Part shown: positions 1 through 39,927 of the stretch, in pieces | Layout: each line of letters begins with the position of its first letter | Position numbering within the stretch: position 1 is the first letter of the stretch | Source of the DNA: Candidatus Bathyarchaeia archaeon | GTDB taxonomy: Archaea; Thermoproteota; CALKCG01; B24 | Assembly: GCA_038870975.1 (NCBI GenBank) | Contig: JAVZJD010000001.1 | Span: 960,001 to 1,024,000, forward strand | Direction: 5' to 3' | Length of the DNA stretch: 64,000 nucleotides | The notes under the pieces: generated by a model | What the model was told of the DNA's origin: nothing | The model's input: the letters and a program-made list of their open reading frames with translations, nothing else | Databases searched by the model: none | Position numbers and translations under genes: made by a program

Positions 1-52
1 CAAATTGAAGGTGGGTATGTAGGAAAAAATAGGGTAGTGGAGTTTAATTGGG

Positions 53-2083
53 TCATGCTACTTGTGGGAAGAATATGAAGAACGATATCGCTGCCACTAG
101 AACTTCCAATGCTGTTCCAAGTATGAAGCCTCCTACAAAGGGCACTACTTTCTCCTCGTATAATTTGCTTCCACCGATTTTCAGTATTGTGTACTTCACT
201 ATTCCATCTACCAGTGCCACAAACCATACGCCGTGGAGTGACCCCTCCCAATCCCAAGCAACTATCGTTACAAGCGGATCTGGTAGCCATAGGATTCTCG
301 TAGACAAATACCTCATAATCACCATGAATATGAAGCCTACAGCAATGTAGATACCAGCCTCACTCATAGGCGCATCGACAGGTCTATTCCAGAGAGACCA
401 GTACCACCAACTGTCTTCATCGAGGTCGGCAGTAAGTACGAGACTTCCAAGGCGGAGGTTCCCACCATAAACCCCAGGTATGACTACCTGCATTATATGT
501 GCAAAAAACATAGATGTGAACAGCGACACTGCAAGGACTTTAATTACGTTTTTAACGCTCGCTCCTGTTAAGCTTGCCAAGTGGTAACTACCTACCGTAG
601 TGTAGAATGAGCTTCCATATCCCGAGAGAGCTCGGTGAGCAATCCAATGTCTATTCAAAGCTGGGGTTAACGCTAAGTCCGTTGTGGTTATCGGTGGACC
701 GTAACCAGTCGGCCAGACAAGCATTCTAATGAACCCAGGTGTAAAACTATAACACGGTGAATTCGAAATGCTTAGCCTACCCCAAACTTGAGTCATAGAA
801 ACCCATGTTATGATCGCTGTAAGTGTAACCGCGAACGATGTCCAAAGGCTCATGCCGGTATATGCAAAGAATAATATCATCAGTATGAAGCATACCGTGA
901 AGATCATCCAGGCATGTCTATACCGCATCGGTTCCACCCGGTCTTCTGCGTTCTTACCAAATGCTGCTTTCAAAGTATTGGTTAAATATTGTCTTTCAAG
1001 GAATATCGTCATGATAAATATTCCGAGAATACTACCTGTAAGTATACCGTGGAAAGCCAACGGTGGGCTGTCATATGGATCTGGAGGACACCAGTTTCTT
1101 CCGCAGAAGCCCACATTAGTTATACCTGTGTAGTAGCCAGAATAATATGCGATGTACAAGGCTACTTCAAACACTAGGGTGTAAAACACCATGCTAAACA
1201 AATAGTGAACAGGTACTAGAAGCATTAATGCATACAGTGGGGGATGTTTAGCAAATCCTAAATTCCAAGGCTGATCAAGTGGTGCAACTTGATGGCATCC
1301 AGGTCCACATGTATTCGTACGCCAGCCATATATATCTGGAAACCATGGGAATAGTGTAATGCCGCTAAGCGGTATAGCTGTTAACAGTCCTATTAAAAAC
1401 CCTAAAATAAATGTCATCCTACCAGGCCATTCGCGTTTTTTAACATTCTCCAAACCTAGAATCGAGCTGTACGCTACAGTAACCCACGGGAATGGTAATC
1501 GTTCAACGTCTATCCACTCTCTACGAAAGATGCTGACAAGGCATATGCTTATACCTCCGAAAATCGCAACTATTAGCGTATACCATACTACAGCTGGAAA
1601 TAGTACACTCCAAGGTAGAGCACTAATGCTTCCAGCACCGTAAAGGAGTACTTCAGCTGAAGTTTTCGGAATCGCTACAAATTCTGGGACGTATCTCAAC
1701 ACGGACTCTGACGTTTGTGCTGAGGCTAAAAGCATACCAATATCCCACCACCATGGATTGTCAAAAGATGAAAAGTACGATGCACACAAAGTAACTATGT
1801 AAAGATATACTATATTCGTCGTAGTCAAATATCTCCGCATATAGGGCAATTTCATAAGCATAGCGGTTAGTAGGAGCATTACAAAAGGCCACCCCATGAG
1901 ATCTAATCCCGGTGTCGATATTAGAACACTGACGCTTTGAGTACAGTATGCACTAGGCGGTAGCCAGAAGATGAACATGTTGAAGAGGCATGTTAGCACA
2001 GCGCTTAAAGCGAAGACCGTTAATAGCGTACCAGATTTTACCTCTTCGTTGCTAGACTTACTTTCAAACCGCTGTCTTTCCAC
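53..2083 (-). CDS. OPT-related multi-pass membrane protein (DUF6785/DUF6784-like), paralogue 1
   Basis: 676 aa, GTG start after GGTGG; many hydrophobic segments; motifs RREWIDVERLPFP, FPWFPD, GYYTG..GFCGR and LKIGGSKLYEE shared with the other paralogues in the window. Confidence 0.75.
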   Translation of the reverse strand: MERQRFESKSSNEEVKSGTLLTVFALSAVLTCLFNMFIFWLPPSAYCTQSVSVLISTPGLDLMGWPFVMLLLTAMLMKLPYMRRYLTTTNIVYLYIVTLCASYFSSFDNPWWWDIGMLLASAQTSESVLRYVPEFVAIPKTSAEVLLYGAGSISALPWSVLFPAVVWYTLIVAIFGGISICLVSIFRREWIDVERLPFPWVTVAYSSILGLENVKKREWPGRMTFILGFLIGLLTAIPLSGITLFPWFPDIYGWRTNTCGPGCHQVAPLDQPWNLGFAKHPPLYALMLLVPVHYLFSMVFYTLVFEVALYIAYYSGYYTGITNVGFCGRNWCPPDPYDSPPLAFHGILTGSILGIFIMTIFLERQYLTNTLKAAFGKNAEDRVEPMRYRHAWMIFTVCFILMILFFAYTGMSLWTSFAVTLTAIITWVSMTQVWGRLSISNSPCYSFTPGFIRMLVWPTGYGPPITTTDLALTPALNRHWIAHRALSGYGSSFYTTVGSYHLASLTGASVKNVIKVLAVSLFTSMFFAHIMQVVIPGVYGGNLRLGSLVLTADLDEDSWWYWSLWNRPVDAPMSEAGIYIAVGFIFMVIMRYLSTRILWLPDPLVTIVAWDWEGSLHGVWFVALVDGIVKYTILKIGGSKLYEEKVVPFVGGFILGTALEVLVAAISFFIFFPQVA

Positions 2084-2166
2084 TTAAGACCACCGAAGTT
2101 GAATAGATTCTCCCTCATAGTATTTATGGTTTTTCGTAATCAAATAAAAAATGAGGTTGAGTGGTT

Positions 2167-4137
2167 TTAGAATGGTATGAAGAATCTTATGGCGCTTATT
2201 ACTCCACCAGCCAGTATCGCTAACGCATATCCGAGTAGGAATCCAGTAGCCACAGGCACTCCATGCTCTTCGTAGGCTTTACTACCTCCGATTTTAAGCG
2301 TAAGAAGCTTAAGAACCCACGCAGCGGTAACCATAACCCATATTCCTTCGCTTATGCATCTTGAGCCGAATGTTAGTAGGAAGCCATATGGGTCTAGTGG
2401 GAATGCTACGAATCTAGCGTGTAGCCAGCTTAAAACCCAGATTACTACCATACCTGCTACGAAGTTTGGTATCCACGGTCCCCCACTCATAACTTCTGGC
2501 GCTATTCCACTCCACGGATTATCCGGGTTTGCGGCGTAGGATATGTCCCCTACGAATGTAGTCGATTGGTAGAAGGGTAGATAAGCCAATCCTACTGAAT
2601 ATCCTAGCGGAAGTATTGTAAGCCACCAGACTAGGGGTATTAGAAACACTATGATAAGCATGATGTAATATAGGCTTCTAGTATCTGTCTTCGTGAGGTT
2701 GGCGAATTTATAACCTGCGAATGAAGCTGCCAATGCTCCTCCCCAGCCCAAGCTTAAACCATCCGAGCCAGATTGACGCATCAATATGCATGTAAGTGCA
2801 TAGTTTGCATCAGCTCTCTCAGGGAGTTCAGGCCATATTGCTCTAAGCCAGTAGAGTCCATATGCGCCTAGTCCAATGGCATTATATCCGGTCCTACCGT
2901 AAACAAACATGGCTGCAAAGAAGAATAGCCAAACCATTATCGGCATCAATATAGCGTTTAGAATGCTTATACCTATTGAAGATAGTAGCCCTACTAGGAC
3001 TAGGTACGATAGTATGAGTGTCGCTCCAACAGCCTTATAATGCTTCTCCTCAGGCTTCAGTATTGCCTTAAAACTTTCAGCTAAATACCTCCTCCTCATA
3101 AAGACATACATCAATACAAGCCCAAGCCCTCCACCCATGTTTGCCACGATCGTCCACTTGAACGGTGCACCCCATTCTAGTGAACTTGGTCCACATTCAG
3201 CGCGGCCGCATCCAGGCATAGTCATCAGTCCAGTGTAGTATCCAGCGTAGTAGGCGACCTGCGTACCTATAAATAGGAACAAGTTGCATATCACGGACGT
3301 AAACAGTGTACTTAAGGGAGCCATATAGAATAGAGCTGCGAGAGACGGATTCTTGCTGTATATAGCTAATGCCACAATGCTATATAGTGGATGATTGGTT
3401 GGTATGCAACCTGCGCCATAGCACTCGGTAGCGCACCTCCAACTGAATACGTCTGGAAACCATGGGAATGTTATCGTTAGGAAAACTATGAATTGAAATG
3501 CAAATCCAAGCACTACACCAATGATATACGGTTTAACGGTCTTTTTCTCAGATTGTTTTACAATTTCGTAAACTGCCAGGGTCTGAGGGAAAGGTACTTG
3601 TTCTACTTCAATCCACTCCTTCTGCCATATGGTGGCTATGGAGAGCATGTAAACTCCGAAGAAGCTGTAGAGGAACCACCAATAAAGCATCACTGGCATC
3701 CAGTAGTTCCACGGTATTGTCGTTCCACCATATATGATTTGTTCGGCGATCTCACGTGGTGGCGCTATAAACTCAGGTATTAGTGGCGATATGGTTTCAG
3801 GGTTAAGCCACCTCTGTGCTATTATACCTGGTGGGACTCTGAATGCTCCGTAGCCGACAGCCATGTAAGAGCTGAATATTGAAGCTATGTATAGGCATGT
3901 TAGGGTTTTAACATCTACTTTGCCTTTGAGAAGTTTAAAAGGTATTATACCCAGAAGAATCACAAGATACGGTAGAGGTGTAAACTCCTCAGAGCAGTTT
4001 ACTGAGCCTGGGTTGTAGAATATCCATATACGTGAGCTCAGCAGGGTATTCCATAGAACTCCAATAGAAACCATGAGTATGGTGGCGATCACTACTATGA
4101 GTGCGGTACGACCTCCTATTCTGTATTCCTCACCCAT
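2167..4137 (-). CDS. OPT-related multi-pass membrane protein (DUF6785/DUF6784-like), paralogue 2
   Basis: 656 aa; KEWIEVEQVPFP, FPWFPD, GYYTG..GCGR and LKIGGSKAYEE motifs. Confidence 0.75.
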   Translation of the reverse strand: MGEEYRIGGRTALIVVIATILMVSIGVLWNTLLSSRIWIFYNPGSVNCSEEFTPLPYLVILLGIIPFKLLKGKVDVKTLTCLYIASIFSSYMAVGYGAFRVPPGIIAQRWLNPETISPLIPEFIAPPREIAEQIIYGGTTIPWNYWMPVMLYWWFLYSFFGVYMLSIATIWQKEWIEVEQVPFPQTLAVYEIVKQSEKKTVKPYIIGVVLGFAFQFIVFLTITFPWFPDVFSWRCATECYGAGCIPTNHPLYSIVALAIYSKNPSLAALFYMAPLSTLFTSVICNLFLFIGTQVAYYAGYYTGLMTMPGCGRAECGPSSLEWGAPFKWTIVANMGGGLGLVLMYVFMRRRYLAESFKAILKPEEKHYKAVGATLILSYLVLVGLLSSIGISILNAILMPIMVWLFFFAAMFVYGRTGYNAIGLGAYGLYWLRAIWPELPERADANYALTCILMRQSGSDGLSLGWGGALAASFAGYKFANLTKTDTRSLYYIMLIIVFLIPLVWWLTILPLGYSVGLAYLPFYQSTTFVGDISYAANPDNPWSGIAPEVMSGGPWIPNFVAGMVVIWVLSWLHARFVAFPLDPYGFLLTFGSRCISEGIWVMVTAAWVLKLLTLKIGGSKAYEEHGVPVATGFLLGYALAILAGGVISAIRFFIPF

Positions 4138-4214
4138 TTTCCCTCAGAGTATTCGTATACGAAATTCTGCTTAAAAGCTTATTCACATTAACTCTATGCT
4201 TCTCATTGGAAATG

Positions 4215-4231
4215 TATCCACTCAATGGATA
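4215..4231. promoter_or_regulatory. Candidate operator palindrome TATCCA-N5-TGGATA in divergent promoter region
   Basis: Perfect 6-5-6 inverted repeat between the transporter pair and GH38. Confidence 0.4.
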
Positions 4232-4298
4232 TTTATGTGATGGATGCTTTAAAGTACTAGACAATGCTTAAGTCCTAATTCAGACATTTTACTCTTTA

Positions 4299-6854
4299 AT
4301 GTCTGACGAAATATACCTTGTGGCTAATTCACATATAGACCTTTCATGGCTTTGGACGAGGGAAGAGACGATAGGTAAAATATGCCCTGAAACATTTCTA
4401 AACGTTTTAAACCTAATGGATAAGTATCCGCTTCTATGCTATGCACAGAGCTCTGCTCAAATATATGAGTGGCTGGAGATTCACCATCCGGAAATTTTCA
4501 GTAGAATACGTGAGAAAGTTAAGGAGGGAAAATGGGAGATAGTGGGCGGTTCATGGGTGGAGCATAATGCAAACCTCCTGTGCGGCGAATCCCTCGTACG
4601 GCAGTATCTTTTTGGAAAGAGGTATTTCATGGAGAAATTTAACGTAGACGTTAAAGTTGCTTGGCTACCGGACAGCTTTGGCTTCTGCTGGACGCTTCCC
4701 CAAGTGCTTAAGAAATGTGGATTGGACTATTTTCTAACGCATAAGTTGAAGTGGCAAGTAGAACGTATGAAACCTCCAATACCTTTTCCACACTACGTCT
4801 TCTGGTGGGAATCGCCAGATGGGTCGCGGGTTTTAACCTACCATACAGTGGGAAGCTACTCTGAAGACGTTAACGCAATGAGGATGCTTGAACAACTGGC
4901 TTTATTGAAAAGGCGTCATGGTTTAACGAAGCTTCTAGTACTATTCGGTAGAGGAGACCATGGAGGTGGACCGACCGAGGGAATGGTTAAGGAAGCTTTA
5001 AGACTTATGGAAATACGTGATCCTGCAGTCTACCCCAGGGTGACCCTATCGACATCTCAACGCTGGTTTCAAGAGGTTGAAACAGTTTCGGAGAATCTAC
5101 AGCTTCCGGTGGTTAAAGATGAACTATATGTTAAGACACATAGGGGGACGTACACTACAGAGTCTAAAGTAAAACTCCACAATAGGAGATGCGAATGTCT
5201 CCTGCTGACCGCTGAAAGATTTGCATCTATAGCTATGCTTCTAGGTATGGCTTATCCTTATGAGGATTTAAAACACGCTTGGAAGCTACTCCTCCTAAAT
5301 CAAGTCCACGACAACATAGATGGGACTTCCATAGAGGAGGTCTACGTTCAAGCTGAGAAAGACTATGGAGAAGTCTACAAGATTGGTGGTAGAGTTTTAG
5401 AGGAGGCTTTAAACACAATCGCATCCAACGTTGACACTGGAGGCTGTGAAGGAATACCTATACTTGTCTTCAACCCACTTTCATGGCGCAGGAGAGACGT
5501 AGTAGAACTCTCCCTTGAAAGGCTCTTTGAAAACGTGAAAGCGTTTAAAATACTAGACTACTCTGGGAGGGAGGCTCCAGTACAAGTCTTAGAAGATGGA
5601 CGTAGCGTTATATTCATAGCTGAAGACATTCCATCTTTCGGCTATAAGCTGTACAGTCTAACTCCTTCATCAGAAGGCTCTGTAGATTCAAACCTCAAAG
5701 TAGGCGAATTCTACCTAGAAAACGAGTTTCTACGCGTAGAAATAGATAGAAGAACAGGCTGTGTCTCTAGAATCTACGATAAAGTTAATGGAAGAGACGT
5801 TTTATCAGACTCCGGGAGAGGAAACATTCTCCAAGTATATGAGGATAAGCCTCCCAACGCTCCCGGTGGAGAACCAGCCTGGAACATGTACCTAGGAGCT
5901 TTAACAGAGCTAGATAAAGCAGAAGAAGTGCGTATAGTTGAGAAGGGACCTGTTAGAGCCACAATTAAAGTAGTTAAGAGATATGGCGGCTCTACTTTTG
6001 AACAATACATCTCACTCTACGATAAGATTCCAAGGGTGGACTTTACGCTTAAAGCCGATTGGCATGAAAAGTATAAAACCTTAAAGGTGGCCTTTCCATT
6101 GAGGTTTAAAAACCACTGGGCTACATACGACACACCCTTCGGCGTAATACAGCGTTACCAGTACATTTACGAGAAAGCCCCAGACAGACAGATGAATATG
6201 CCTAAGAGGCCGTGGGAGCCTGCGGATAAAGCCAAATTTGAAGTACCCGCGCTCTACTGGGTAAACATAGATACTGAAAATGGAGATTACGGTGTAGCTC
6301 TACTCAACGACTGTAAATACGGTTTCGACGTAGTTGAAAATACGATTAGAATGACTCTTCTCAGGGGTCCTAGACGCGGATATCCATCTACACCTGAACA
6401 GTGGGCTGATCAATCAGACGATCCACGTGTAGGAGTACACATCGTCAAATACGCATTATACCCCCATAAAGAGGATTGGGCGAAGTCGATGGTGTTTAGA
6501 AGAGGCTACGAATTCAACTATCCTCTGATAGCGTGGAGATCCCCAGGAAACCCGGGGCCTCTGCCGAAGGCTCTATCACTGATAGATGTTAAACCAGGTA
6601 ATGTCGTTCTCTCTGCTTTGAAAAAAGCTGAGGATTCAAACGAGCTTGTGTTGAGGGTTTACGAAACCTGTGGTTTAAAGTCAGACGTAGAATTGAAAAC
6701 GTCTTTTAAGCCTCTAAAAGCAGTTGAAACAGACTTAGTTGAATGGGATATGTATATAGAGGGAAGAGAATTTAAAGTATCAGAGGACGTGGTGAGCTTC
6801 TACATAAAAGGTAATGAAATAGTCACAGTTAAACTCACACCTCGGAAGCCATAA
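4299..6854 (+). CDS. Glycoside hydrolase family 38 alpha-mannosidase
   Basis: SHIDLSWLW (Zn ligands), WLPDSFG (nucleophile Asp), GDHGGG, HRGTYT and QVHD motifs. Confidence 0.92.
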   Translation: MSDEIYLVANSHIDLSWLWTREETIGKICPETFLNVLNLMDKYPLLCYAQSSAQIYEWLEIHHPEIFSRIREKVKEGKWEIVGGSWVEHNANLLCGESLVRQYLFGKRYFMEKFNVDVKVAWLPDSFGFCWTLPQVLKKCGLDYFLTHKLKWQVERMKPPIPFPHYVFWWESPDGSRVLTYHTVGSYSEDVNAMRMLEQLALLKRRHGLTKLLVLFGRGDHGGGPTEGMVKEALRLMEIRDPAVYPRVTLSTSQRWFQEVETVSENLQLPVVKDELYVKTHRGTYTTESKVKLHNRRCECLLLTAERFASIAMLLGMAYPYEDLKHAWKLLLLNQVHDNIDGTSIEEVYVQAEKDYGEVYKIGGRVLEEALNTIASNVDTGGCEGIPILVFNPLSWRRRDVVELSLERLFENVKAFKILDYSGREAPVQVLEDGRSVIFIAEDIPSFGYKLYSLTPSSEGSVDSNLKVGEFYLENEFLRVEIDRRTGCVSRIYDKVNGRDVLSDSGRGNILQVYEDKPPNAPGGEPAWNMYLGALTELDKAEEVRIVEKGPVRATIKVVKRYGGSTFEQYISLYDKIPRVDFTLKADWHEKYKTLKVAFPLRFKNHWATYDTPFGVIQRYQYIYEKAPDRQMNMPKRPWEPADKAKFEVPALYWVNIDTENGDYGVALLNDCKYGFDVVENTIRMTLLRGPRRGYPSTPEQWADQSDDPRVGVHIVKYALYPHKEDWAKSMVFRRGYEFNYPLIAWRSPGNPGPLPKALSLIDVKPGNVVLSALKKAEDSNELVLRVYETCGLKSDVELKTSFKPLKAVETDLVEWDMYIEGREFKVSEDVVSFYIKGNEIVTVKLTPRKP

Positions 6855-6885
6855 ATTTATTTAACGCGCATGCGCTAATAAGGGA

Positions 6886-7716
6886 GTGAAAACGATGAAA
6901 TACGAGATTAAGTATAGCCCAAGCTACTCTATGCTGGAAGTTAGTCTAGAGCCTAAGGAGATTATTGTAGCGGAAGCAGGCGCCATGATATACATGTCTC
7001 CTCAAATAACTGTTAAAACGAGGAAAAGAGAAAGCGACAGCCTATGGAGAAGCATCAAAACGACGGTTTTAGGCGGTGAATCCTTCTTCGTAAACGAGTA
7101 TATTGCAGAGAGAGGCCCGGGTAAAGTTGGCTTTGCTCCAGCTCCCGTAGGTGATATAAACGTTCTTAAAGTGGAAGCCGGGAGGGGGCTTATCCTTCAA
7201 AAGTCAGCCTATTTAGCATCAACAGAGGGCATAACCTTGGATACAGAATAGCAGGGGTTTAAAAGAGGGCTCTTTGGCCAAAGTCTATTCATGCTTAAAG
7301 TTTCCGGAGAGGGTCTATTGTTTGTAAACGCCTTCGGCGCAATAGACAGACACAGTCTAAAAAGTGGTGAGTCTCTAATAATAGACAATTACCATCTGGT
7401 AGCCTTTGACGACACATGCAGGTATGATGTTAAGAAGTTTGGCGGGTTAAAATCCACAATATTGGGAGGGGAAGGCTTAGTAACCGAAGTCTATGGACCT
7501 GGAGAAGTATACATTCAGACTAAGAATATACGCGAGTTTGTCGATTGGCTTTGGGAGCTACTTCATGCAAGGGTGGAAACTACGGCGAGAACTACGGCTA
7601 TGGAAAAAGGAGAGAGAAGGTATCGGCTTCAGCTTAGGCAGACCGAAATAATGGCAAATCTAGTCTCCAGCTATTTTTCAAACTGTGTTAAATACTGCTT
7701 ATGTGCCTCAAGGTAA
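6886..7716 (+). pseudogene. TIGR00266/AIM24-family gene interrupted by in-frame TAG (7249-7251), possible +1 frameshift near 7604-7608
   Basis: ORFs 6886..7251 and 7291..7716 are in the same frame; reading DTE*QGFKRGLFGQSLFML restores a continuous AIM24 domain (AEAGAM, GGESFF, GGEGLV, GPGEVYIQT). Confidence 0.75.
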
Positions 7717-9011
7717 TCATTGAAAAGCTTTTTAGCTATTTCAAGTGTTGGAACCATAGGGTCTAAAGCAAGGGCTTGAACCGCGAGCTGTCTATCCCCC
7801 GTTAATGCAGCTTCAACTGTTAGCTCTTGCTGGGCTATTCTCTGCTGTAGGATTGCCTCTACACCTTTAGGTAGTCTGCCGACGTTTACGCCTTTAAATC
7901 CAAGTGGGCTCACTACTACTGGTATTTCTACGACTGCGTCGTCTGGAAGCCCCTCTATGCATCCATTGTTAGGTATGTTCGCGCCCTCGAATAGTCTAAC
8001 TTGGTTTTTAACGATAATCTCCATAAGTTCATATGCAAACGAATGTTCAGCTATGCCTTTACGCTGTTCAACCAGCTCTTTAATAGGCCTTCTCCCGTCA
8101 GCCCAACCCGAGACCATCTCCCATACTTGGTTTCTCCACTCTTCACGGTATATGGTATCGCCTGGGAATAGCTTAAGCCCGTACTTAGCGCCATAGTTTG
8201 CCTCTTGACATAGGAAGTATGGGAAGAATTCAGCCACATGTGAATCTCCCTGTACAGGGTATAATCCGAATATTTCCATAAGCTCTACGGAAACATATGC
8301 ATGGAATGGCTTGCCCGTTTTAACGGCCTCATCCCTCATAGCTACGATTTTACGTTTAAACTCAGGGTATACGTCTCTACCGTTTGCATAGGCTTCTAAA
8401 ACCCACGTTAGATGGTTTACACCAGCCGCTGTAAAAACTAAATCCTCAGGTTTACAGCCTACAGCTCTAGATATGAAGTACCTAGGTGCTTTAACACCAG
8501 TACATAAACCTATGACATTCGCCTTAGTCGTTTTTCTAGCGGCTCTACACATAGTGGTCAGTGGGTTTGCCTCGTTGAAGACTACAGCATTTGGACAGAG
8601 CTTCTCCACGTCACGGCAGATCTCCACCATTGGAATTACATGCCTTAGGGCTCTTGAGAAACCAGCCGGACCTACCGTATCAGCAACCGTATGGTATATG
8701 CCGTACTTCTCCGCCACTTTAACGTCTGCCTCTATTCCTCTTATACCGCCTACTGCTATAGTTATTATGACGAAATCTGCATTCTTAAGAAGATCCCTTC
8801 TATCAGTGCTGGCTTCTACTTTAAGCCCAGCTTTAGTTTCCTCTAATATCCTTGAAGCAACCTTTTCCATTATTTTAAGCTTCTCTTCATCGATGTCTAC
8901 AAGTCCTATCTCTATGTCTCTGAATACGTCTGAGGTCGCCATTTCAGCTAAGAGCCCCGGCGTAAAGGCTAAACTTCCAGCTCCTATTACAACAAGCTTC
9001 AAATCCGTCAC
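7671..9011 (-). CDS. Glycoside hydrolase family 4 (NAD+/Mn-dependent alpha-glycosidase)
   Basis: IGAGSLAFT Rossmann start, DTVGPAG, ANP, GLC, GVNH and ALDP motifs. Confidence 0.9.
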   Translation of the reverse strand: MTDLKLVVIGAGSLAFTPGLLAEMATSDVFRDIEIGLVDIDEEKLKIMEKVASRILEETKAGLKVEASTDRRDLLKNADFVIITIAVGGIRGIEADVKVAEKYGIYHTVADTVGPAGFSRALRHVIPMVEICRDVEKLCPNAVVFNEANPLTTMCRAARKTTKANVIGLCTGVKAPRYFISRAVGCKPEDLVFTAAGVNHLTWVLEAYANGRDVYPEFKRKIVAMRDEAVKTGKPFHAYVSVELMEIFGLYPVQGDSHVAEFFPYFLCQEANYGAKYGLKLFPGDTIYREEWRNQVWEMVSGWADGRRPIKELVEQRKGIAEHSFAYELMEIIVKNQVRLFEGANIPNNGCIEGLPDDAVVEIPVVVSPLGFKGVNVGRLPKGVEAILQQRIAQQELTVEAALTGDRQLAVQALALDPMVPTLEIAKKLFNDYLEAHKQYLTQFEK

Positions 9012-9064
9012 AGCTTTCTCTATAGTTCGTATAGTATTTAAGTCTAGTGTAGAACATTATCACG

Positions 9065-9664
9065 CTAAGTACTATGGGGAGTTTCATTCAAAATTCCAGG
9101 TAGGATTTTTCCAAGCCTCACCCAGTCTTCTTCTAAAAGCTTCTTCATCGACGGGTTGTAGAGGGCTGAAGCGGGATGATACATGACTACTATATGCGCG
9201 TTATACGTCGACACTTCAACTCTGAATACTTTACCGTGAAGCCTATTCATAGAGCTGTATGGTAGCCCGTATTTAGTCAAAAGATAGTTTGCCGCTACAG
9301 AACCTAAAGCCACCAACACTGTGGGCTTCAGAATATCTATCTGTCTATCTAAATACTGGCTGCACATTTTCACCTGCTCATCAGTAGCCTTATTATCTGG
9401 AAGATAGCACTTGACTACATTGGTTATGTACAGCTTCCCTCTTTCAAGCCCAGCTAAAGCTAAGAGACTGTTGAGAAATTTCCCAGCGGCGCCTACAAAA
9501 GGCCTCCCTTCAAGATTCTCATAATAGCCGGGCCCTAACCCAACCAGCATAATTCTACTATTTAGAGGCCCTTCTCCTACGACCTTATGTCTACTCCCCC
9601 TCCATAAACTGCATTTTCTGCAGTTTTCAACTTCTAATTTAAGGTGCTCATAGGAGTCTTCCAT
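9065..9664 (-). CDS. udg: Uracil-DNA glycosylase, family 4 (Fe-S)
   Basis: CRKC, GLGPG..E...GRPFVG, TNVVKC and YHPA motifs. Confidence 0.9.
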   Translation of the reverse strand: MEDSYEHLKLEVENCRKCSLWRGSRHKVVGEGPLNSRIMLVGLGPGYYENLEGRPFVGAAGKFLNSLLALAGLERGKLYITNVVKCYLPDNKATDEQVKMCSQYLDRQIDILKPTVLVALGSVAANYLLTKYGLPYSSMNRLHGKVFRVEVSTYNAHIVVMYHPASALYNPSMKKLLEEDWVRLGKILPGILNETPHST

Positions 9665-9812
9665 CGTAGCTCTACATTGAAAAATATCATTGAAAACGAT
9701 TAATTAAATTAAACGTCGCAGATTTCTATGGCCTTCCAAGGAAACACGAACGGCTTAATATTCAAACTGGATAGTCCTCCGAAGACTTAATATTTGATAT
9801 TCCCTATAAGGA

Positions 9813-10679
9813 GTGGAGGCTATGTACGCAGTAGTAGACAATGCATTCAACGGTGCTGTTAAGAAGTTTAGAGCAAACTACCACGTCCACACGCGTATGA
9901 GTGACGGCTCTTCAGAACCACTAGATTACTTTGAAAAAGCAGCTGAAGCGGGACTCGTAGAGATAGGGTTTACAGACCACCTCGTAATACTAGATGATGC
10001 CAGTATAGGTTTAGGCTCTCTAAATGTAGATGAATTAGACTCTTACATTGAAGCGATAGATGCACTTAAGGAGTCCTCTAAAAAAGTGGCTGTTAAGTGT
10101 GGTTTGGAGGTAGACTATACGCCGGGAGGGATTAAACGAGTTGAAGAAATCCTAGAATCCTACGGGAGCCGTTTAGACTACACGTTGATGGGCGTTCATA
10201 TAATCGATGACTTCCACTTCGACACTCCAGAGTCGATTACAACATGGATGAATTTAAGCCAAGAAAAAATCGACAAACTATATGAAAGATACTATGAACT
10301 CGTTCGAGAAGGCGTTGAAACTGGAATTTTCACAGTAGTCGCCCATTTAGATATTGTGAAGAAATTCGGGTTTAAATCATCAAGAGAGTATTTGAAGCAG
10401 GTGGAATCCATACTGGAATCGGTTAAAACACTAGACATGGCAGTTGAAGTAAGTTCAGCGGGGTTACGACACCCAGTTCGAGAACTATACCCTTCAGGTA
10501 GAATAGTAGATATTTTGGCCTTCTTCCAGGTGCCTGTAACAATGGCTACAGATGCTCATAAGCCTGAAGACGTTTCAGCCGGGCTGGAATTCGTCGCTGA
10601 GCTTATAAAGGCGAAGAACCTCCCCCTAGCCATACCTGGTAATGGACTTACAATACTGAATCCACTTGAAATCCTCTAG
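9813..10679 (+). CDS. PHP-domain phosphatase, HisJ/HisK histidinol-phosphatase family
   Basis: YHVHT, GFTDH, GLEVDY, AHLD and TDAH motifs; start uncertain. Confidence 0.8.
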   Translation: MEAMYAVVDNAFNGAVKKFRANYHVHTRMSDGSSEPLDYFEKAAEAGLVEIGFTDHLVILDDASIGLGSLNVDELDSYIEAIDALKESSKKVAVKCGLEVDYTPGGIKRVEEILESYGSRLDYTLMGVHIIDDFHFDTPESITTWMNLSQEKIDKLYERYYELVREGVETGIFTVVAHLDIVKKFGFKSSREYLKQVESILESVKTLDMAVEVSSAGLRHPVRELYPSGRIVDILAFFQVPVTMATDAHKPEDVSAGLEFVAELIKAKNLPLAIPGNGLTILNPLEIL

Positions 10680-10708
10680 CGGAGAACCTTCCCAGCTTAA
10701 ACCGAAAA

Positions 10709-11491
10709 CTACTTCAGAAAAACCTGGGATATTTCTGAAGGATTCTTCGGATTAATCGTTAGAGCAAATGGCCTACCACGATAAGCACTCGTCGAACTAA
10801 CCGTAATCACTCTACCATTATGTTCAGAGTAATACCCTTTTAAGGCTTTCATCGGCTCATGGCTTCTAACAATCCTCTTAACACCCAATCTTCGACAGAC
10901 TTCCTCTGTGACATCTATTCCAAATTCAACGCCAACCCCCCTTCTATTCGGGTATTCCCCATATCCTTCAAAGGGGTCCGACCAGAGAACATCTATTTCG
11001 ACAATTTTTAACGGTCTTCTTAAGTCTTCCAAGCTTGTGATTTTACGCGATACCCCTCCATGAACTAAAAGCACTTCATTGGGTATTACCGCAGCCAAGT
11101 ACAATTGTTCAATAAATGGTTTAAGCTCGCTACGGAAATAATTGACCCAATCTCCCTTTTTCCTAATCGCCTCCCTTACTAGATCACACGGATAAAACTT
11201 TGGAGCTCCATCTTCAGTATAGTCTTCATGGTTACCCTTCAACGCTACAACCCTCCCATGGTATTTTCTCAGCAGTGTAGCCACGGTTTCAATGACTTCT
11301 ACTCCATGTCTCCCTCTATCAGCATAGTCTCCGAGAAAGACGAGGAAATTCCCCTCTTTCTCAGCTATTTTAACAATAGGATCTAGCACACTATAATCGC
11401 CGTGGATATCGCCAAACACTATAATCCGATCGATAATGCTAAGTACTTTCCATGTAAATTCGAATAAACAGGTTCTTGCGGAAGCCAACAA
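10709..11491 (-). CDS. Ser/Thr protein phosphatase, PPP (PP1/2A-like) family
   Basis: GDIHG, GDYADRG, GNHE, HGG, LWSDP and RSHE motifs; true start probably downstream. Confidence 0.9.
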   Translation of the reverse strand: MLASARTCLFEFTWKVLSIIDRIIVFGDIHGDYSVLDPIVKIAEKEGNFLVFLGDYADRGRHGVEVIETVATLLRKYHGRVVALKGNHEDYTEDGAPKFYPCDLVREAIRKKGDWVNYFRSELKPFIEQLYLAAVIPNEVLLVHGGVSRKITSLEDLRRPLKIVEIDVLWSDPFEGYGEYPNRRGVGVEFGIDVTEEVCRRLGVKRIVRSHEPMKALKGYYSEHNGRVITVSSTSAYRGRPFALTINPKNPSEISQVFLK

Positions 11492-11530
11492 TTTAAAATG
11501 GTTACGGTACTCTCCTTAAACTTTACCACG

Positions 11531-12298
11531 TTAGATGAGCATCATAGTCTTCAGAATCCTCTCAACATCTTCCAGTGCCACTGTAGTCTTCAGTCTCTCA
11601 CCCAATAAAATAGATTCATATAGATCGTCGTCAAACCTCACAACTCCATCGATTTTGACTTTAAGCTTTTCAGCTTCTCTTTTGATTATAGCCCAAACTC
11701 TAGGAGTGATCTTATTGGCTATGATCCAATAGCTTTTACCGAGCTTGCTGGCTACGTTTCTGAGAAGCACAGCCGACTGTAGAGATTCAGCCGTAGGATC
11801 TACAACTATAACTATGCAGTCCACAGCTTCCTCTACTCTTCTGCCTACATGCTCTATGCCGGCATCTGTATCTACTAGGACTATTTCATTGTCTTCCAAA
11901 ACCAAGTTCTTCAAAACTATTCTAGTTAAAATGTTGAATGGGCATGCACACCCTTCACCATACTCTCTTACTTTACCTATTGTAACCAGCCCAATCTCCT
12001 CCTCAGAGTATGATATGTACTTATCAGGTAGAAGCTTCAGCTTCACACCCGAGCCAGTTCTAGCTAAAATTCTAGCTACATCAAGCTCCCTCTTCTCAAG
12101 CTCACTTTCATCCATCTTACCGCCAATATACTCGATTAAAGGCGTAGGTGGGTTTACACCAAGAAGCTTAGGGAGGAGAATATTAGATTCATCTGAATCT
12201 ACGATGTAAACCCTATACTTTCCCGTTAAAACCCTCGACATGAGAACTGTTAACGCAGTCTTACCAGACCCACCCTTACCGCAAACCATAATCTTCAT
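11531..12298 (-). CDS. cooC: CooC/AcsF-type nickel-insertion ATPase
   Basis: Deviant Walker A GKGGSGKT, GCACP Ni-binding CxC, DTDAGIEH.GR. Confidence 0.8.
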   Translation of the reverse strand: MKIMVCGKGGSGKTALTVLMSRVLTGKYRVYIVDSDESNILLPKLLGVNPPTPLIEYIGGKMDESELEKRELDVARILARTGSGVKLKLLPDKYISYSEEEIGLVTIGKVREYGEGCACPFNILTRIVLKNLVLEDNEIVLVDTDAGIEHVGRRVEEAVDCIVIVVDPTAESLQSAVLLRNVASKLGKSYWIIANKITPRVWAIIKREAEKLKVKIDGVVRFDDDLYESILLGERLKTTVALEDVERILKTMMLI

Positions 12299-12441
12299 AT
12301 TTTTCTCAACTGTCTAATTGATTGGGAAACCGTTTAAACTTTATGAAAACCTCTAAAAACCACCTTCATCGAGTTGCGAGGGATTAAACTTAGCCGTTGA
12401 TTAAGGTGTTAATCTTAAGAGCTCCCACAGCTACTTCATAA

Positions 12442-13434
12442 GTGTCTCTTATGAAGGCTAAACGTGTGGTTTTTCAAAGCAAAGGTGTTGTTAAAGTTGA
12501 AGATTTTGAAATCGGTAAACCTCAACCCGGCTATCTACTCATCAAAACGATCTGCAGTCTTATAAGCCCTGGTACTGAAACGGCATTTCTAATGGCTCTT
12601 CCGAATACACCGGGGGTCTTCCCACAGTATCCGGGCTACTCAAACATAGGCATAGTTGAAGAAGTTGGTGAAAACGTTAAAGATTTTAAACCCGGCGACC
12701 TTGTAGCATCAGCGGCGGGGCACAGTAGTTACGTATTGGTTTCTAAAGATGAAGCTTTGAAAGTTCCAGAGGGTTTACCAGTCGAAGAGGCGTCTTTTTT
12801 CAACCTTGCAGCCATAGCCTTACAGGGCGTTAGAAAGGGTTTCATAGAGTTGGGGAGTTCAGTCGTAGTCGTAGGTCAAGGTCTTGTAGGACTATTAGCT
12901 ATGCAGTTTGCGGCATTGAGCGGCGCTTATCCTCTTATAACAGTAGACACAATCACCAGTCGTCTTAAGCTTTCAGCCAAACTTGGAGCGGACTACACGG
13001 TAAATCCAGCAGAAGTAGATGCTGTTGAGGAGGTTATGCGTTTAACCGATGGACGTGGAGCAGACGTCGTTATAGAGGCTACTGGAAACCCCGATGCGAT
13101 TCCTACGGCTTTAAACATGGCTGGTAGACTTGGTAGAGTGGTGATCTTAGGAAGTCCTAGGGGGTTGTCAACCGTCAACTTTTACATGCCAATCCATAGA
13201 AAAGGGTTGATAGTAGTAGGTGCGCATTCCAATGTTAGACCGATGTTTGAATCATTGCCACACTTCTGGACCCAGAAGGATGATATGGGCCTCGCTTTAA
13301 AACTTATGGCTAAAGGTAGGCTTAAAGTGAGAGAACTCATAAGTGTAAAACTGCCTGTTGAAAAAGCCCCTGAGGCGTATAGGCTCATAATGGAGAAGAA
13401 GGAGGAAACCCTAGGAGTACTACTATATTATTAA
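12442..13434 (+). CDS. MDR-family (alcohol/sugar) dehydrogenase
   Basis: SLISPGTE, GYSNIG, GQGLVG and GADVVIEATG motifs. Confidence 0.85.
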   Translation: MSLMKAKRVVFQSKGVVKVEDFEIGKPQPGYLLIKTICSLISPGTETAFLMALPNTPGVFPQYPGYSNIGIVEEVGENVKDFKPGDLVASAAGHSSYVLVSKDEALKVPEGLPVEEASFFNLAAIALQGVRKGFIELGSSVVVVGQGLVGLLAMQFAALSGAYPLITVDTITSRLKLSAKLGADYTVNPAEVDAVEEVMRLTDGRGADVVIEATGNPDAIPTALNMAGRLGRVVILGSPRGLSTVNFYMPIHRKGLIVVGAHSNVRPMFESLPHFWTQKDDMGLALKLMAKGRLKVRELISVKLPVEKAPEAYRLIMEKKEETLGVLLYY

Positions 13435-13577
13435 TTCATTTTCATTATAATTTATCTACATCTCTAGTCTACAGACTCATTGTAGGATGACTAGACCAGT
13501 AATCGACTAAGGAAGCCTGAGTATTAAATAAAACTTGGAAAATGGAGAGAGTTTACAATATTGCTGACCGTACTCTA

Positions 13578-14528
13578 TCAAACCTCTAGCGACTTCTTTA
13601 GAAGCTCTAAGTCGATTACACCTGCACTGTATACCTTCCCATCTCTGATATTGTTGACCGTTAAATGGGCTGGACTGAATATGGCTGGATCTATCTTGTA
13701 GAAGTCGTAGCCAGCCTCCTTGAAAATTTCGAAGAAGGGTTTACCGTAGATTTTTGAAGCCGAAGAAGGAGCTTTCTTAACATAGTCTTCTAGATCCGTC
13801 CCCTCGTAGTCCACCGTTAAGAAGACTTGACCTGAAGCTATTATCACGTCGTTCGTCCTACCCATGGCTCTTGCAAACTTAGGATGTATAGGTGCTATTG
13901 GAGCAATTCCAGCACCATAGACTATTTTCTTAGGGTCGAATCCGAGCTCAGTGAGCTTATGGATACCTGTTTCAACGATCCGCCCAGATATCTGTGTACA
14001 TCCAGCTATGCTGGATGTTGGTGTTATCACAGAATAAACCTTGCTGGGATCTACGTGGCATTTATCTGCTATATACTTAAAGACTTCCGCAGAAGGATAC
14101 TTGTCTGTTTCAAATACTATAACCGCTACGTCGGATTCATCCTTATACTGGATTTTACGGTAGAGCTCTTTAGGCTCTTGAGATATGGCTCTCGCCGGAC
14201 CAGAGCCTAACGCGAAAAAGTCTCCAACTTTAATCCTCCATCCCGCGAACTGCGAACCCAGTGTAGCTATACACGGTTCATCTGTATATACCACTACCGC
14301 TGGTAGTACGAGATCGCCATACTTTTGAACCGTTAAACAGGCTCTACCCAGTCCACCCATGCAGATCTCAGTTATCTTTAAACCAGTCTCATATCCTCCT
14401 CTGGCTTTAACGCCAGCATCCACAATAACTCCACCGTTTTCAACCTTCTCCACTTTAACACCGTAGTATTCTGGGTTTGAAATAACTTCTTCAAGTATTT
14501 TTAAAGCCCCTCGGTTTACGCTAAACAT
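13578..14528 (-). CDS. mch: Methenyltetrahydromethanopterin cyclohydrolase
   Basis: ICMGGLG, LGSQFAGW, GSGPARA, QISGRIVETG, AMGRTND and DFYKID motifs. Confidence 0.95.
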   Translation of the reverse strand: MFSVNRGALKILEEVISNPEYYGVKVEKVENGGVIVDAGVKARGGYETGLKITEICMGGLGRACLTVQKYGDLVLPAVVVYTDEPCIATLGSQFAGWRIKVGDFFALGSGPARAISQEPKELYRKIQYKDESDVAVIVFETDKYPSAEVFKYIADKCHVDPSKVYSVITPTSSIAGCTQISGRIVETGIHKLTELGFDPKKIVYGAGIAPIAPIHPKFARAMGRTNDVIIASGQVFLTVDYEGTDLEDYVKKAPSSASKIYGKPFFEIFKEAGYDFYKIDPAIFSPAHLTVNNIRDGKVYSAGVIDLELLKKSLEV

Positions 14529-14645
14529 ACCCTAAGACACCTCGTGGATTATTTCTACGGTGGTCGTATAATAGTTTTTACTTTCAACACTGATAACACA
14601 CTTTATTACAGTAACATACTATCTTATTTCCGGGAGGTTGCAGGT

Positions 14646-15725
14646 TTGAACTCTAGAGAACGTTGCATTAGAAGTATACGCCATGAAGAACTCGATAGGA
14701 TCCCTCTTGTATTTAGAAGTAGGCCTGAACCCTTTAAAGCACTTATGGAGAGGTTTAGCCTCTCAAACGCGGAAGACCTATACAAGATTCTACACATAGA
14801 TATTAGAGGAACAGGTATAGGTATTAAGGGCGGCTATCTTCCTAAGAATGTCGAGGTTAAAGAGGGACCTTACGGGCCGGCTTACACGGTCGGCGAATAC
14901 ATGGGGTTTGAAGTTAGAAGAGACCTATGGGGTGTTGAGAGCATTTGGGCACCGAATAGAACATACACGTATACATACTACAAGCATCCGTTGCAGCATA
15001 TTCCGCTTGAAGAGTACAAGTGGCCTGAAGTATCCGTGGAAGATTTCGATGCGGTGGTTAAAGCACGTAGAATATATGAAGACTACTGTCTCTGTGGGGG
15101 TGTTGAACACATGTGGGAGATCGCTTGGCAACTTGTCGGCTTCAAAGAGATTATAAAGCTCATGTTTACTAAGCCAAGCTACGTTAACTCCGTGCTAGAT
15201 GGTCTTCATAAGATTCGAATGCAGCAGGCTAAGCTCCAATGTGAAGCTGGTGTAGACGTAATATACGATGGTGATGACGTCGGTATGCAGAAGGGTATGA
15301 TGATGTCTCCAGAGATGTGGAGACGCTTCCTAAAGCCTAAGTATAAGGAACTTATCGACCTCTGCCATAGATATGGTGTATTCTTCCACTTCCATAGCGA
15401 TGGATGGATCGAACCGATAATTCCAGACCTTATCGAGATAGGCGTAGATATATTGAACCCTGTTCAACCAGAATGCATGGATCCTGTTAAACTTAAGAGA
15501 CTTTATGGGGATAAGCTCTGCTTCGAGGGGACGATAGGTGTTCAAAGCACACTACCATTTGGAACGCCTGAAGACGTAGCTAGAGAAGTTAAATGGAGAA
15601 TAGAAGAGTTGGGACCTACGGGTTTAATTCTAGGGCCAACGCATGCAATACAGCCGGATACTCCCATAGACAATATAATAGCACTATATGAAGCGGCTTT
15701 GAAATACGGCACTTTTAAACGTTAA
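14646..15725 (+). CDS. URO-D/MtaA-fold protein (uroporphyrinogen decarboxylase superfamily)
   Basis: Likely TTG start at 14646 after GGAGGT (MNSRER..DRIP); GDDVG, FHSDG, LNPVQPE and GPTHAIQ motifs. Confidence 0.85.
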   Translation: MNSRERCIRSIRHEELDRIPLVFRSRPEPFKALMERFSLSNAEDLYKILHIDIRGTGIGIKGGYLPKNVEVKEGPYGPAYTVGEYMGFEVRRDLWGVESIWAPNRTYTYTYYKHPLQHIPLEEYKWPEVSVEDFDAVVKARRIYEDYCLCGGVEHMWEIAWQLVGFKEIIKLMFTKPSYVNSVLDGLHKIRMQQAKLQCEAGVDVIYDGDDVGMQKGMMMSPEMWRRFLKPKYKELIDLCHRYGVFFHFHSDGWIEPIIPDLIEIGVDILNPVQPECMDPVKLKRLYGDKLCFEGTIGVQSTLPFGTPEDVAREVKWRIEELGPTGLILGPTHAIQPDTPIDNIIALYEAALKYGTFKR

Positions 15726-17460: not shown

Positions 17461-17642
17461 GTATTCTCAACTACGAATTTAAAACTCTTTTTAGAGGTTT
17501 GCCGTACTTGTAGGGCTAGCATTTGTTTAACGCAGTGACGGAGACGTTTTAAATTTAACATTATGTAAAACCCCATACGAGCATCATAAAAACAAAGGAG
17601 TAGTTGGGTTCTGGCTCAGCTAGAATAGTGGAATCGCGTAGC

Positions 17643-18374
17643 CTACCTAATCGGCTCTAGTAAATCTAAAACTTCTCTCAGATTTTTTATAATGAAGTCT
17701 GGTTTAACGTTTGAATCTTCTAGTTTCTCCCCCTCTTTAAACTTCCATATCGCATACATGCCAACAGCCTTAGCTCCTCCTACATCCCTCTTTAAAGAAT
17801 CTCCAATATGTACTGCCTCATACGGTTCAACATCTAATTGATTTAAAGCGTAGTAGAAGATTTCCCTCCTAGGTTTACGCCACGTCGTCAGAGCAGAAGC
17901 TGCTATTGCGTCGAATAAATCGAAAACTTGAAATTTCTTCAAAATATCTTTAAGACCCTCATAGTCCGTAGTATTTGAGATTAAACCTAGTAGAAAACCG
18001 CGCTGTTTAAGTTCTTCTAAAACTTGCGTAGCACTTTCGTAGATAAATGTATCCTCTAGAGATGCCCGTCTGTAGGCTTCGTAAAGAGCTTCTATAAGAT
18101 CGTGGTGTTTCCTCTTAATGCCAAGGTTTAGAAGGATTAAGCTTATCCAATACTTACGGCAGAATTCAACATCCTCATCTAACATTTCAAAATATTCAGC
18201 CACCTTCCTAATGGAGTTTAAAACATCCGCTTCATTCAGAGAATATCCCAACTCTTTAAATCTGACTGTAAGTGCTCCAGCTCTAACTGGGAACCCTCCC
18301 TTAGAGTAGAAAAGCGTATCTCCAGCGTCGAAAAACACAGCTTTAACCTTCAAAGCCACCCTCCTAATAATCAC
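17643..18374 (-). CDS. HAD-superfamily hydrolase
   Basis: FDAGDTL, ISN, KP and HIGDSLKRD motifs; probable TTG start at 18353. Confidence 0.85.
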   Translation of the reverse strand: MIIRRVALKVKAVFFDAGDTLFYSKGGFPVRAGALTVRFKELGYSLNEADVLNSIRKVAEYFEMLDEDVEFCRKYWISLILLNLGIKRKHHDLIEALYEAYRRASLEDTFIYESATQVLEELKQRGFLLGLISNTTDYEGLKDILKKFQVFDLFDAIAASALTTWRKPRREIFYYALNQLDVEPYEAVHIGDSLKRDVGGAKAVGMYAIWKFKEGEKLEDSNVKPDFIIKNLREVLDLLEPIR

Positions 18375-35594: not shown

Positions 35595-35706
35595 CACTCC
35601 ATTTTTAAAAATAAACCTATGGTTGAAATACATAAATCGTCTGTAAAATTGATATGGACATGGTTTACAAGCTTTGGTCTATTTCCGCCTCCTCCAAGCG
35701 ATCAAC

Positions 35707-36504: not shown

Positions 36505-36900
36505 GCGACTATTTAATTTTATTAAAAATTGTAATGGATTGCGTCTTTCTTTCCTCAGTTGTAGCTATGAAAAATTTCCTTTAGTCATTAACACCGTGAA
36601 TCCTACATTGTTCATGTGTGGAATGAAAGTGGGCGTCAAGTTTATATGGTTACTATGGATAAATATATTGCTATCATGACCCACAGGAAACTGGGGATGA
36701 ATTGAAAAGTCTTAGGCTTACTAAAAGAGAGCCTTATGTAGGCTGATTGATCCAGAAAGCTTCTTCAGAAGCTTTGTAAATTTAATTACTGGTTCTGGTG
36801 CATAGTAATTAAAGGTAAATATTATACTCTAGCAAAGATCCAAAAGGTAAGGAGGACTCTGAAGATAGAAGATAAGGATAAGATTGAGCTTTTATTAAGA

Positions 36901-37236: not shown

Positions 37237-37358
37237 CGAATATCAATTAGATAGGTGAAGAGTCAAACACATCCTGACTCTGAAACCCTAGGTTACCTTC
37301 CCACCTTTAAGGTCAATACATATATTCTAGCTGGTAACTACTCTTTCATCTGACCTAT

Positions 37359-39792: not shown

Positions 39793-39927
39793 GAGGGAGA
39801 CACCATTTTACACAGTTATGTAATAAAAGGTGCGATATAAACATTGATTGACGACTGATTGAAAATATTTTATAGATATAAAAATGGAGAAAAACATATA
39901 TACATATTCCATTAACTAAGATTTTGG

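Follow-up and report, generated by a model that had tools for sequence, protein, structure and literature searches.

What might a hot-spring archaeon import through two large membrane carriers whose genes face that of an alpha-mannosidase? The question is raised by locus A, a gene cluster at the left end of a 64,000-nucleotide stretch (positions 960,001 to 1,024,000 of contig JAVZJD010000001.1; "the window" below means this whole stretch) of a 1.85-Mb hot-spring Bathyarchaeia-like genome. Few uncultured archaea are as abundant in sediments and hot springs as the Bathyarchaeia, whose uptake of substrates is largely guessed from lists of enzymes. In locus A, two tandem carrier genes, T1 and T2, are divergent from a gene for a family GH38 glycoside hydrolase, with a GH4 gene nearby. 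We found that one carrier of a three-gene arrangement conserved across the phylum (the triad) has radiated into ~20 solo copies whose catabolic partners differ from copy to copy, and that GH38 genes have been recruited repeatedly; this is new here.

Gene content of locus A

A first-pass annotation, made from the DNA letters alone, had described two polytopic paralogues of ~660-680 amino acids (aa) separated by 161 bp from a divergent GH38 gene, a GH4 gene ~0.8 kb beyond it, and no ATP-binding cassette (ABC) ATPase or solute-binding protein. These details were borne out: T2 starts at 4137 and GH38 at 4299, the 3' end of GH4 lies 817 bp past the GH38 stop, and a Pfam scan of 1-12300 found no ABC ATPase or solute-binding protein. 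The features of the locus are as follows.

53-2083, minus strand: T1 carrier, 676 aa, polytopic, DUF6785 and DUF6784, predicted OPT/YSL-like fold; second gene of the T2-T1 unit
2167-4137, minus strand: T2 carrier, 656 aa, paralogue of T1; first gene of the T2-T1 unit, divergent from GH38
4138-4298: divergent intergenic region, 161 bp, with a perfect 12-bp palindrome, TTCGTATACGAA, at 4152-4163
4299-6854, plus strand: GH38 alpha-mannosidase, 851 aa, cytoplasmic, Ams1/MAN2C1-like, four GH38 Pfam domains
6886-7716, plus strand: pseudogene of the AIM24/TIGR00266 family, in-frame TAG at 7249-7251
7671-9011, minus strand: GH4 NAD-dependent glycosidase, 446 aa, convergent on the GH38 unit, both GH4 Pfam domains
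L010:8673-9869, minus strand: GFO/IDH/MocA oxidoreductase, just left of the window, 184 bp downstream of T2-T1 on the same strand

The T2-T1 transcription unit probably extends into the GFO/IDH/MocA oxidoreductase gene, beyond which a major facilitator superfamily (MFS) gene lies on the opposite strand. In pairwise alignments, T1 was 25% identical to T2 (E 4e-54) and 27% identical over its full length to T3, a third carrier encoded further along the window.

The carriers share a predicted fold with OPT/YSL transporters

The DUF6785 and DUF6784 profiles scored 96.1 and 32.6 bits with T1, 60.7 and 46.4 bits with T2, and 88.7 and 56.0 bits with T3, against cut-offs of 25 and 26.4 bits, placing all three in the same family. 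The first-pass annotation had called the carriers related to oligopeptide transporters (OPT). None of T1, T2 and T3 matched the OPT profile PF03169 at E ≤ 0.01 (gathering score 25.8 bits); its cut-off was passed by only one of the 21 paralogues in the genome, at 34 bits, and a few carrier homologues have a precomputed PF03169 match. A profile of the carrier family found no real match among PDB sequences. An AlphaFold (AF2) model of T1, made from a 110-sequence alignment, had a mean predicted local distance difference test score (pLDDT) of 94.3 and a predicted template modelling score (pTM) of 0.94. Its sole significant Foldseek match in the PDB was barley Yellow Stripe 1 (HvYS1; E 6e-8), with the predicted OPT/Yellow Stripe-like (YSL) fold extending over the whole chain. 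The earlier label therefore stood at the level of fold and failed at the level of Pfam matches for T1-T3. Because the sequence relation is at the edge of detection, we restrict "OPT-related" to the fold level, and accept it as a statement about superfamily that rests on the predicted structure, not as membership of the Pfam family.

The structural representative of the OPT/YSL transporters, HvYS1, is a proton-driven symporter that dimerizes through its scaffold domains (PMC9691689). Out of 1.84 billion cluster representatives, ~4,400 matched the carrier family itself at E ≤ 1e-3 and 965 did so at 1e-30, and its named homologues came from metagenome-assembled genomes of Bathyarchaeia/Bathyarchaeota, Thermoprotei and Brockarchaeota. 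A literature search combining Bathyarchaeota with OPT found nothing relevant, and a genomics paper on hot-spring Bathyarchaeia contained no discussion of DUF6785/DUF6784 carriers.

A triad carrier has radiated into solo copies

Full-length carriers (644-687 aa) number 21 in this genome, about 1 gene in 80. The family was present in 52 of 301 sampled genomes of the phylum, including every sampled member of the family and order to which the window belongs, and first-look candidates ranged from 1 to 39 per genome. To describe its setting elsewhere in the phylum, ~17 kb was fetched around 47 carriers from ~20 other genera. At ~35 of the 47 loci, the carrier stood beside a ~1500-aa protein (the giant) and a ~620-650-aa protein without a Pfam match. 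This ~640-aa partner is remotely homologous to the carriers (hhalign probability 99.8%, E 2e-27, 550 columns), and the giant joins a PA/M28 aminopeptidase-like ectodomain (2ek8, E 5e-34) to an FtsX membrane domain of MacB/LolC type (5lil, E 7e-22). In the M28-like part the catalytic Glu-Glu pair is replaced by H-W (SGHWQ in the consensus of 33 sequences); a giant of the present genome likewise has HW in an alignment to the Vibrio aminopeptidase, and Tyr in place of one zinc-binding His. With the Glu-Glu pair replaced and a zinc ligand lost in the genome's own copy, the giant is probably not an active peptidase. No ABC ATPase was among the commonest triad neighbours. An unbiased count of Pfam families in 146 genes next to the carrier or the triad core, from ~18 other genera, gave only small numbers: Radical SAM (6), xylose-isomerase-like TIM barrel (5), URO-D (4), B12-binding (4), GFO (3), GH57 (3), GalT (3) and TrmB (2). 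The genome studied here has two triads.

Triad 1: giant, L008:13200-17900(-); OPT-like protein of ~640 aa, L008:11243-13195(-); DUF6785 carrier, L008:9111-11168(-)
Triad 2: giant, L014:1403-5668(+); OPT-like protein, L014:5655-7556(+); carrier, L014:7566-9500(+)

The triad is the ancestral setting of the carrier family, and the family as a whole is not sugar-specific. The first-pass view that the family as such imports oligosaccharides is thus not supported, its phylum-wide partners being the giant and a second OPT-like protein.

The carrier tree (FastTree, LG+gamma, 74 carriers, 619 columns, Shimodaira-Hasegawa-like supports) revealed that the deep, phylum-wide branches are carriers from other genera. 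A single clade (support 1.0) took in 20 of the 21 copies of the present genome, along with others from its own family and from G152, a genome that belongs to another family and has 31 copies; one triad carrier was nested within this radiation clade. T1, T2 and T3 were placed in three different subclades, with supports of 1.0, 0.955 and 1.0. Since T1 and T2 belong to different supported subclades, their tandem is old and not the product of a recent duplication.

Carrier and GH38 genes have come together repeatedly

The first-pass annotation had also noted that the pairing of a transporter with a GH38 recurs at 39928-46791. This second locus (locus B) is real, its GH38 being 38% identical to the first, and contains the following genes.

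39928-41961, plus strand: T3 carrier, 677 aa, the window's third paralogue, at the head of this second carrier and GH38 locus
41996-42646, minus strand: membrane protein, 216 aa, with a PA14-like domain between two transmembrane helices (Pfam PA14, 26 bits)
42736-45795, plus strand: second GH38, 1019 aa, with a ~225-aa N-terminal extension and no signal peptide
45811-46791, plus strand: URO-D-fold gene, 16 bp behind the second GH38 (Pfam URO-D, 98 bits)

Further URO-D-fold genes were seen in the window at 37359-38414 and 14544-15725. The sister of T3 in the tree, the paralogue C2:743859, is likewise followed by a PA14 membrane protein (L017:5857-6483) and then by a glycosidase-like gene (DUF4838/GH67N-like). 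With their outward PA14-like domains, the membrane proteins beside T3 and C2:743859 may be surface sugar-binding partners of these carriers.

Both loci are conserved. Two genomes of the genus (L106, L107) retain the gene order T2|GH38-AIM24-GH4, their GH38 being 82% and their GH4 93% identical. T1, T2 and the start of GH38 also lie together on an 8.6-kb contig from a hot-spring relative that is ~93% identical. The order T3-PA14-...-GH38-URO-D is kept in another genus (L020, G056), including the adjacency to URO-D. In a third genus, g3, from another family of the same order, a carrier from a different branch, one of triad type, lies directly upstream of a GH38 gene on the same strand (L023, L109). 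The carriers that adjoin GH38 genes, namely T1, T2, T3 and that of g3, occupy four separate supported subclades. The carrier-GH38 adjacency has thus arisen at least three times, in locus A, in locus B and in g3, and this repeated origin is the best argument for a functional link.

Solo carriers have copy-specific catabolic neighbours

Carrier neighbourhoods were rebuilt from raw genome stretches, using open reading frames of at least 80-90 aa, greedy removal of overlaps, BLAST labels and Pfam tallies, so that small genes and exact starts are approximate. Among 117 genes within 3 positions of the 21 carriers, the tally gave URO-D 6, GFO/IDH/MocA 5, DegT 3, GH4 3, GH38 2, MTTB 2, PA14 2 and MFS 2. 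Beyond locus A and T3, the copies with telling neighbours include the following.

C2:685388: GH29 alpha-L-fucosidase gene 32 bp upstream
C1:1040696: operon of URO-D, carrier, GH4, MTTB and URO-D
C2:743859: PA14 membrane protein, then the DUF4838/GH67N-like gene
C1:428182: divergent gene for a glucuronoyl-/acetylxylan-esterase-like protein at 59 bp; DeoC/LacD aldolase gene behind
C1:374252: DegT aminotransferase genes on both sides
C1:535464: DegT aminotransferase gene behind
C1:123675: M20 peptidase gene

A fourth DUF6785 paralogue begins in the window at 63193 on the plus strand and runs off its end at 64000 (C1:1023193-1025217). A GH4 fragment at C1:387780-388264 (L004:16874-17358), 3 genes from a carrier, contains internal TGA and TAA stops and is probably a pseudogene.

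The pairings of carriers with GH4, DegT, URO-D and MTTB are repeated in G152 (loci L113-L142), where the inner neighbours included URO-D (7 of 79), AP_endonuc_2 (3), DegT (2), MTTB (2), GH4 (2), GH53 (1) and GH95 (1). In that genome, MTTB genes flank a carrier on both sides (L119, G152:C108), and in the genome of the window an MTTB gene is in an operon with a carrier, a GH4 gene and two URO-D genes (L012, C1:1035053-1046768). There are hints in these neighbourhoods that some copies could transport methylated amines or betaines.

The glycosidases and the intergenic region of locus A

The first GH38 has all four domains of a CAZy GH38 enzyme above their cut-offs (PF01074, PF09261, PF07748 and PF17677). 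In a pairwise alignment of the two GH38s of the window, the metal-binding HxD motif (SHIDLSW) and the motif of the nucleophile Asp (LPDSFG) were present. The first-pass annotation had seen no obvious signal peptide in this protein and had assumed cytoplasmic glycosidases; its N-terminus, MSDEIYLVANSHID, indeed contains no hydrophobic leader, and the cytoplasmic location holds for both GH38s, neither of which has a leader or a transmembrane segment. Among solved relatives, the first GH38 is nearest to Ams1 (E 1e-100, compared with E 1e-24 for bacterial GH38). Membership of the mannosylglycerate hydrolases (NCBIfam NF007331, MngB type) was ruled out, the scores being 158.6 and 121.3 bits against an equivalog cut-off of 1138; biochemically, mannosylglycerate is still a conceivable substrate. 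The GH4 protein matched both CAZy GH4 domains (PF02056, 148 bits; PF11975, 150 bits) and has the NAD-binding GxGS motif at its N-terminus (VVIGAGSLAF). Its top NCBIfam match, below that family's cut-off, was an alpha-galactosidase subfamily, and its closest solved structures were a 6-phospho-beta-glucosidase and the alpha-galacturonidase LplD.

The palindrome TTCGTATACGAA lies ~15 bp upstream of the T2 start. A search of the whole 1.85-Mb genome returned this single occurrence, so that it gives no evidence of a regulon or of a shared operator; it may be a local operator. Between GH38 and GH4, the AIM24 gene is interrupted by a TAG codon, at which relatives carry TGG (Trp), and its C-terminus is also altered in the window. 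Intact copies are present in two genomes of the genus, and a third has a frameshift. Given the TGG codon and the frameshift, the AIM24 gene is decaying in the genus and has not been recoded; together with the altered C-terminus, they rule out reading the TAG as pyrrolysine.

Elsewhere, the gene content of the window is archaeal, with genes for thermosome, RpoE, PaREP1, DUF2070 and methenyl-H4MPT cyclohydrolase. The DNA runs in which the stretch occurs were hot-spring metagenomes from several studies, and two runs labelled "metatranscriptomic WGS" are probably DNA as well. When window 1-9700 was compared with the sediment metatranscriptome X15, contigs at 95-99% identity matched most of T2 as well as parts of T1 and of GH4, and none lay on GH38; as the matches are contigs with possible DNA carry-over, they indicate presence in an RNA library and not proof of transcription, and the gaps prove nothing.

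A proposed role for locus A

Building on the observed gene content, carrier fold, radiation, neighbourhoods, gene order, conservation and independent juxtapositions, we tentatively propose, with a confidence somewhat short of even, that locus A is a lineage-specific catabolic cluster in which T1 and T2, as proton-coupled carriers, would import an alpha-mannoside for the cytoplasmic GH38. By analogy with HvYS1, from which both direction and coupling are taken over, T1 and T2 would most likely be proton-coupled importers, and they could form a heterodimer modelled on the HvYS1 dimer. Their substrate would most likely be an alpha-mannoside, whether a glycoside or a short oligosaccharide that contains mannose. 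In the cytoplasm it would be cut by the Ams1-like GH38, with release of mannose, and what is left of the glycoside or sugar would be processed further by GH4 and by the GFO/IDH/MocA oxidoreductase, whose gene is probably co-transcribed with T2-T1. In this lineage, one triad carrier has given rise to ~20 solo copies, each located next to its own kind of catabolic module (mannosidase, fucosidase, GH4, esterase, amino-sugar aminotransferases, sugar oxidoreductases or methyltransferase-type URO-D/MTTB genes).

The statistics of co-location bear on this proposal in two ways. The genome contains 4 GH38, 10 GH4, 27 GFO and 23 URO-D genes. Within 3 genes of a carrier were 5 of the 14 GH38 and GH4 genes (0.99 expected, p 0.002), 3 of the 10 GH4 genes alone (p 0.03), 10 of the 41 GFO, GH4 and GH38 genes (2.9 expected, p 4e-4) and 6 of the 23 URO-D genes (p 0.004); for the pooled tests, the families had been picked after the tally was seen and the discovery loci were included. 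With the discovery loci removed, only the GH4 enrichment was left (3 of 10, p 0.03). Being post hoc and including the discovery loci, these tests provide moderate support only. The first-pass annotation had made its reading depend on an enrichment of glycosidases near the carriers. This was present within the genome and absent from other genera: in 17 of these, a carrier lay within 9.5 kb at only 2 of 40 GH38 loci, where copy numbers predict ~3.3, and none of GH38, GH4 and GH29 was among the 25 commonest families of the 146 genes next to the carrier or triad core. At the level of the family, the expected enrichment is thus partly lacking.

Several further points weigh, together with the selection of the pooled families, the loss of most enrichment outside the discovery loci and the chance-level result in other genera, against the import of mannosides. 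About 9 of the 21 carriers in the genome have no informative partner. The commonest neighbours of solo carriers are URO-D-fold (MtaA/HemE-like) genes and not glycosidases, and many copies therefore probably carry non-sugar substrates. The genome also encodes ~4 binding-protein-dependent ABC importers, and these could supply the glycosidases as well; sugars thus have possible routes other than the carriers. Known OPT substrates are peptides, glutathione, and metal-nicotianamine or metal-phytosiderophore complexes, and to our knowledge plain sugars are not among them. In our literature search, no paper found mentioned DUF6785 or DUF6784.

Alternative explanations

The known substrates suggest another possibility, which we consider unlikely, namely that T1 and T2 have retained the classical OPT function, the import of oligopeptides or glycopeptides, with GH38 and GH4 trimming the glycopeptide sugar or GH38 being only loosely linked. 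It is consistent with the OPT-family fold, with the names of the closest named language-model clusters ("peptide transporter" and "OPT oligopeptide transporter"; score 0.81, a lead only), with the M20 peptidase that adjoins one paralogue, and with the de-mannosylation of glycoproteins by the Saccharolobus solfataricus GH38, as worded in a title cited in PMC7469102. However, neither locus A nor locus B contains a peptidase, and most copies have sugar- or methyl-group enzymes as their partners. Since the catalytic Glu-Glu is missing from the M28-like domain of the triad giant, the ancestral context of the family is not clearly proteolytic. The triad could be relevant in another manner, if the solo carriers were spare subunits of a machine made of the giant and twin OPT-like proteins, acting in trans with the two giants of the genome in uptake, export or envelope work. 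This idea, to which we give a similarly low probability, is favoured by the conservation of the triad context across the phylum (~35 of 47 loci), by the distant homology of its ~640-aa partner to the carriers, and by the nesting of one triad carrier in the radiation clade; it also accords with the combination of a PA/M28-like ectodomain and a MacB/LolC-type membrane domain in the giant, and with the resemblance of the T1/T2 tandem to the twin arrangement. On the other hand, no giant lies within 3-4 genes of 19 of the 21 copies, HvYS1 functions without such a partner (PMC9691689), and the solo copies have conserved catabolic neighbours of their own, a better fit to autonomous, substrate-specific carriers.

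The adjacency of carriers and GH38 genes could also be circumstantial, 21 copies and expanded enzyme families producing chance juxtapositions that then persist by descent. The chance-level result of the GH38-centred test in other genera points in this direction, as do the 2 of 4 GH38 genes in the genome without a carrier within 3 genes and the absence of any regulon signal, the palindrome of the shared promoter being found nowhere else. Coincidence does not readily account for immediate adjacency in four subclades, including the same-strand pair in another family of the order (L023, L109), for an arrangement conserved at 82-93% protein identity in the genus and also found in a second genus, or for further copies at 13-60 bp from GH29, PA14/DUF4838 and esterase genes, and we hold it to be improbable. 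Export is more doubtful still: the carriers might move or flip sugar-containing molecules such as surface-glycan precursors instead of importing nutrients, and three DegT/DnrJ-type amino-sugar aminotransferases flank two copies while a GT1/GT28-like transferase is near another. Yet the known OPT members are importers (HvYS1, PMC9691689), locus A consists of hydrolases and an oxidoreductase without transferases, and a separate Wzx/MurJ-type flippase gene is present in the window at 49628-51145; we regard export as very improbable.

Alpha-mannoside import by T1 and T2, with breakdown by the cytoplasmic GH38, is the plausible reading that we retain for locus A. A broader proposal is possible, although we are doubtful of it: in some Bathyarchaeia the carriers may have radiated into the main set of substrate-specific importers, with one carrier or pair per catabolic module, as an archaeal counterpart of polysaccharide utilization loci (PULs), and they may be the first OPT-superfamily carriers of sugars and methylated compounds. 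If true, the substrate range of the OPT superfamily would be widened. Copy number, OPT-like fold and copy-specific neighbours make the carrier family a concrete candidate for the uptake of organic substrates by Bathyarchaeia, and the neighbourhoods provide testable guesses for individual copies, including mannosides, fucosides, GH4 substrates, amino sugars and methylated compounds. The solo carriers are, moreover, now linked to the triad of giant FtsX protein and twin OPT-like proteins.

Comparison with known systems

The OPT superfamily has one solved structure and few characterised prokaryotic members. The carriers of locus A resemble OPT/YSL transporters (TC 2.A.67, PF03169; HvYS1 PDB 7wst and 7wsr) in their length of ~650-700 aa and in the weak profile similarity of some members, and the HvYS1 dimer is a possible model for the T1/T2 pair; identity to HvYS1 is only ~10-12%. 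We know of no described OPT family that reaches 21 copies in a 1.85-Mb genome or adjoins glycosidases. Within their own family, T1, T2 and T3 are relatives of the DUF6785 member of the triad. Neither the giant nor the ~640-aa partner lies within ~10 kb of T1/T2 or T3, and locus A differs from the triad in having two solo carriers from a lineage-specific radiation.

For the hydrolase, the closest parallel is the group of cytoplasmic GH38s typified by yeast Ams1 and mammalian MAN2C1, with which the GH38 of locus A shares the full domain set and the absence of an export signal. The ~280 N-terminal residues of Ams1 have no counterpart in it, the alignment beginning at about Ams1 residue 283. Characterised archaeal GH38s, from S. 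solfataricus and Picrophilus torridus, are given as intracellular in PMC7469102.

The SusC/SusD PULs of Bacteroidota are similar to the present loci in that an uptake component lies beside glycosidases of one specificity, in an arrangement that is repeated in the genome with different enzymes. Locus A has no TonB-dependent transporter, SusD, outer membrane, secreted endo-enzyme or recognisable sensor, and none of the Pfam families of TonB-dependent transporters or SusD was found in 1-19400 or 35700-49400. Its hydrolases are cytoplasmic, and many carrier copies lie beside enzymes that do not act on carbohydrates. Because genes for SusC and SusD are both absent, locus A does not qualify as a SusC/SusD-type PUL; it would operate as a sugar utilization locus built on a secondary transporter.

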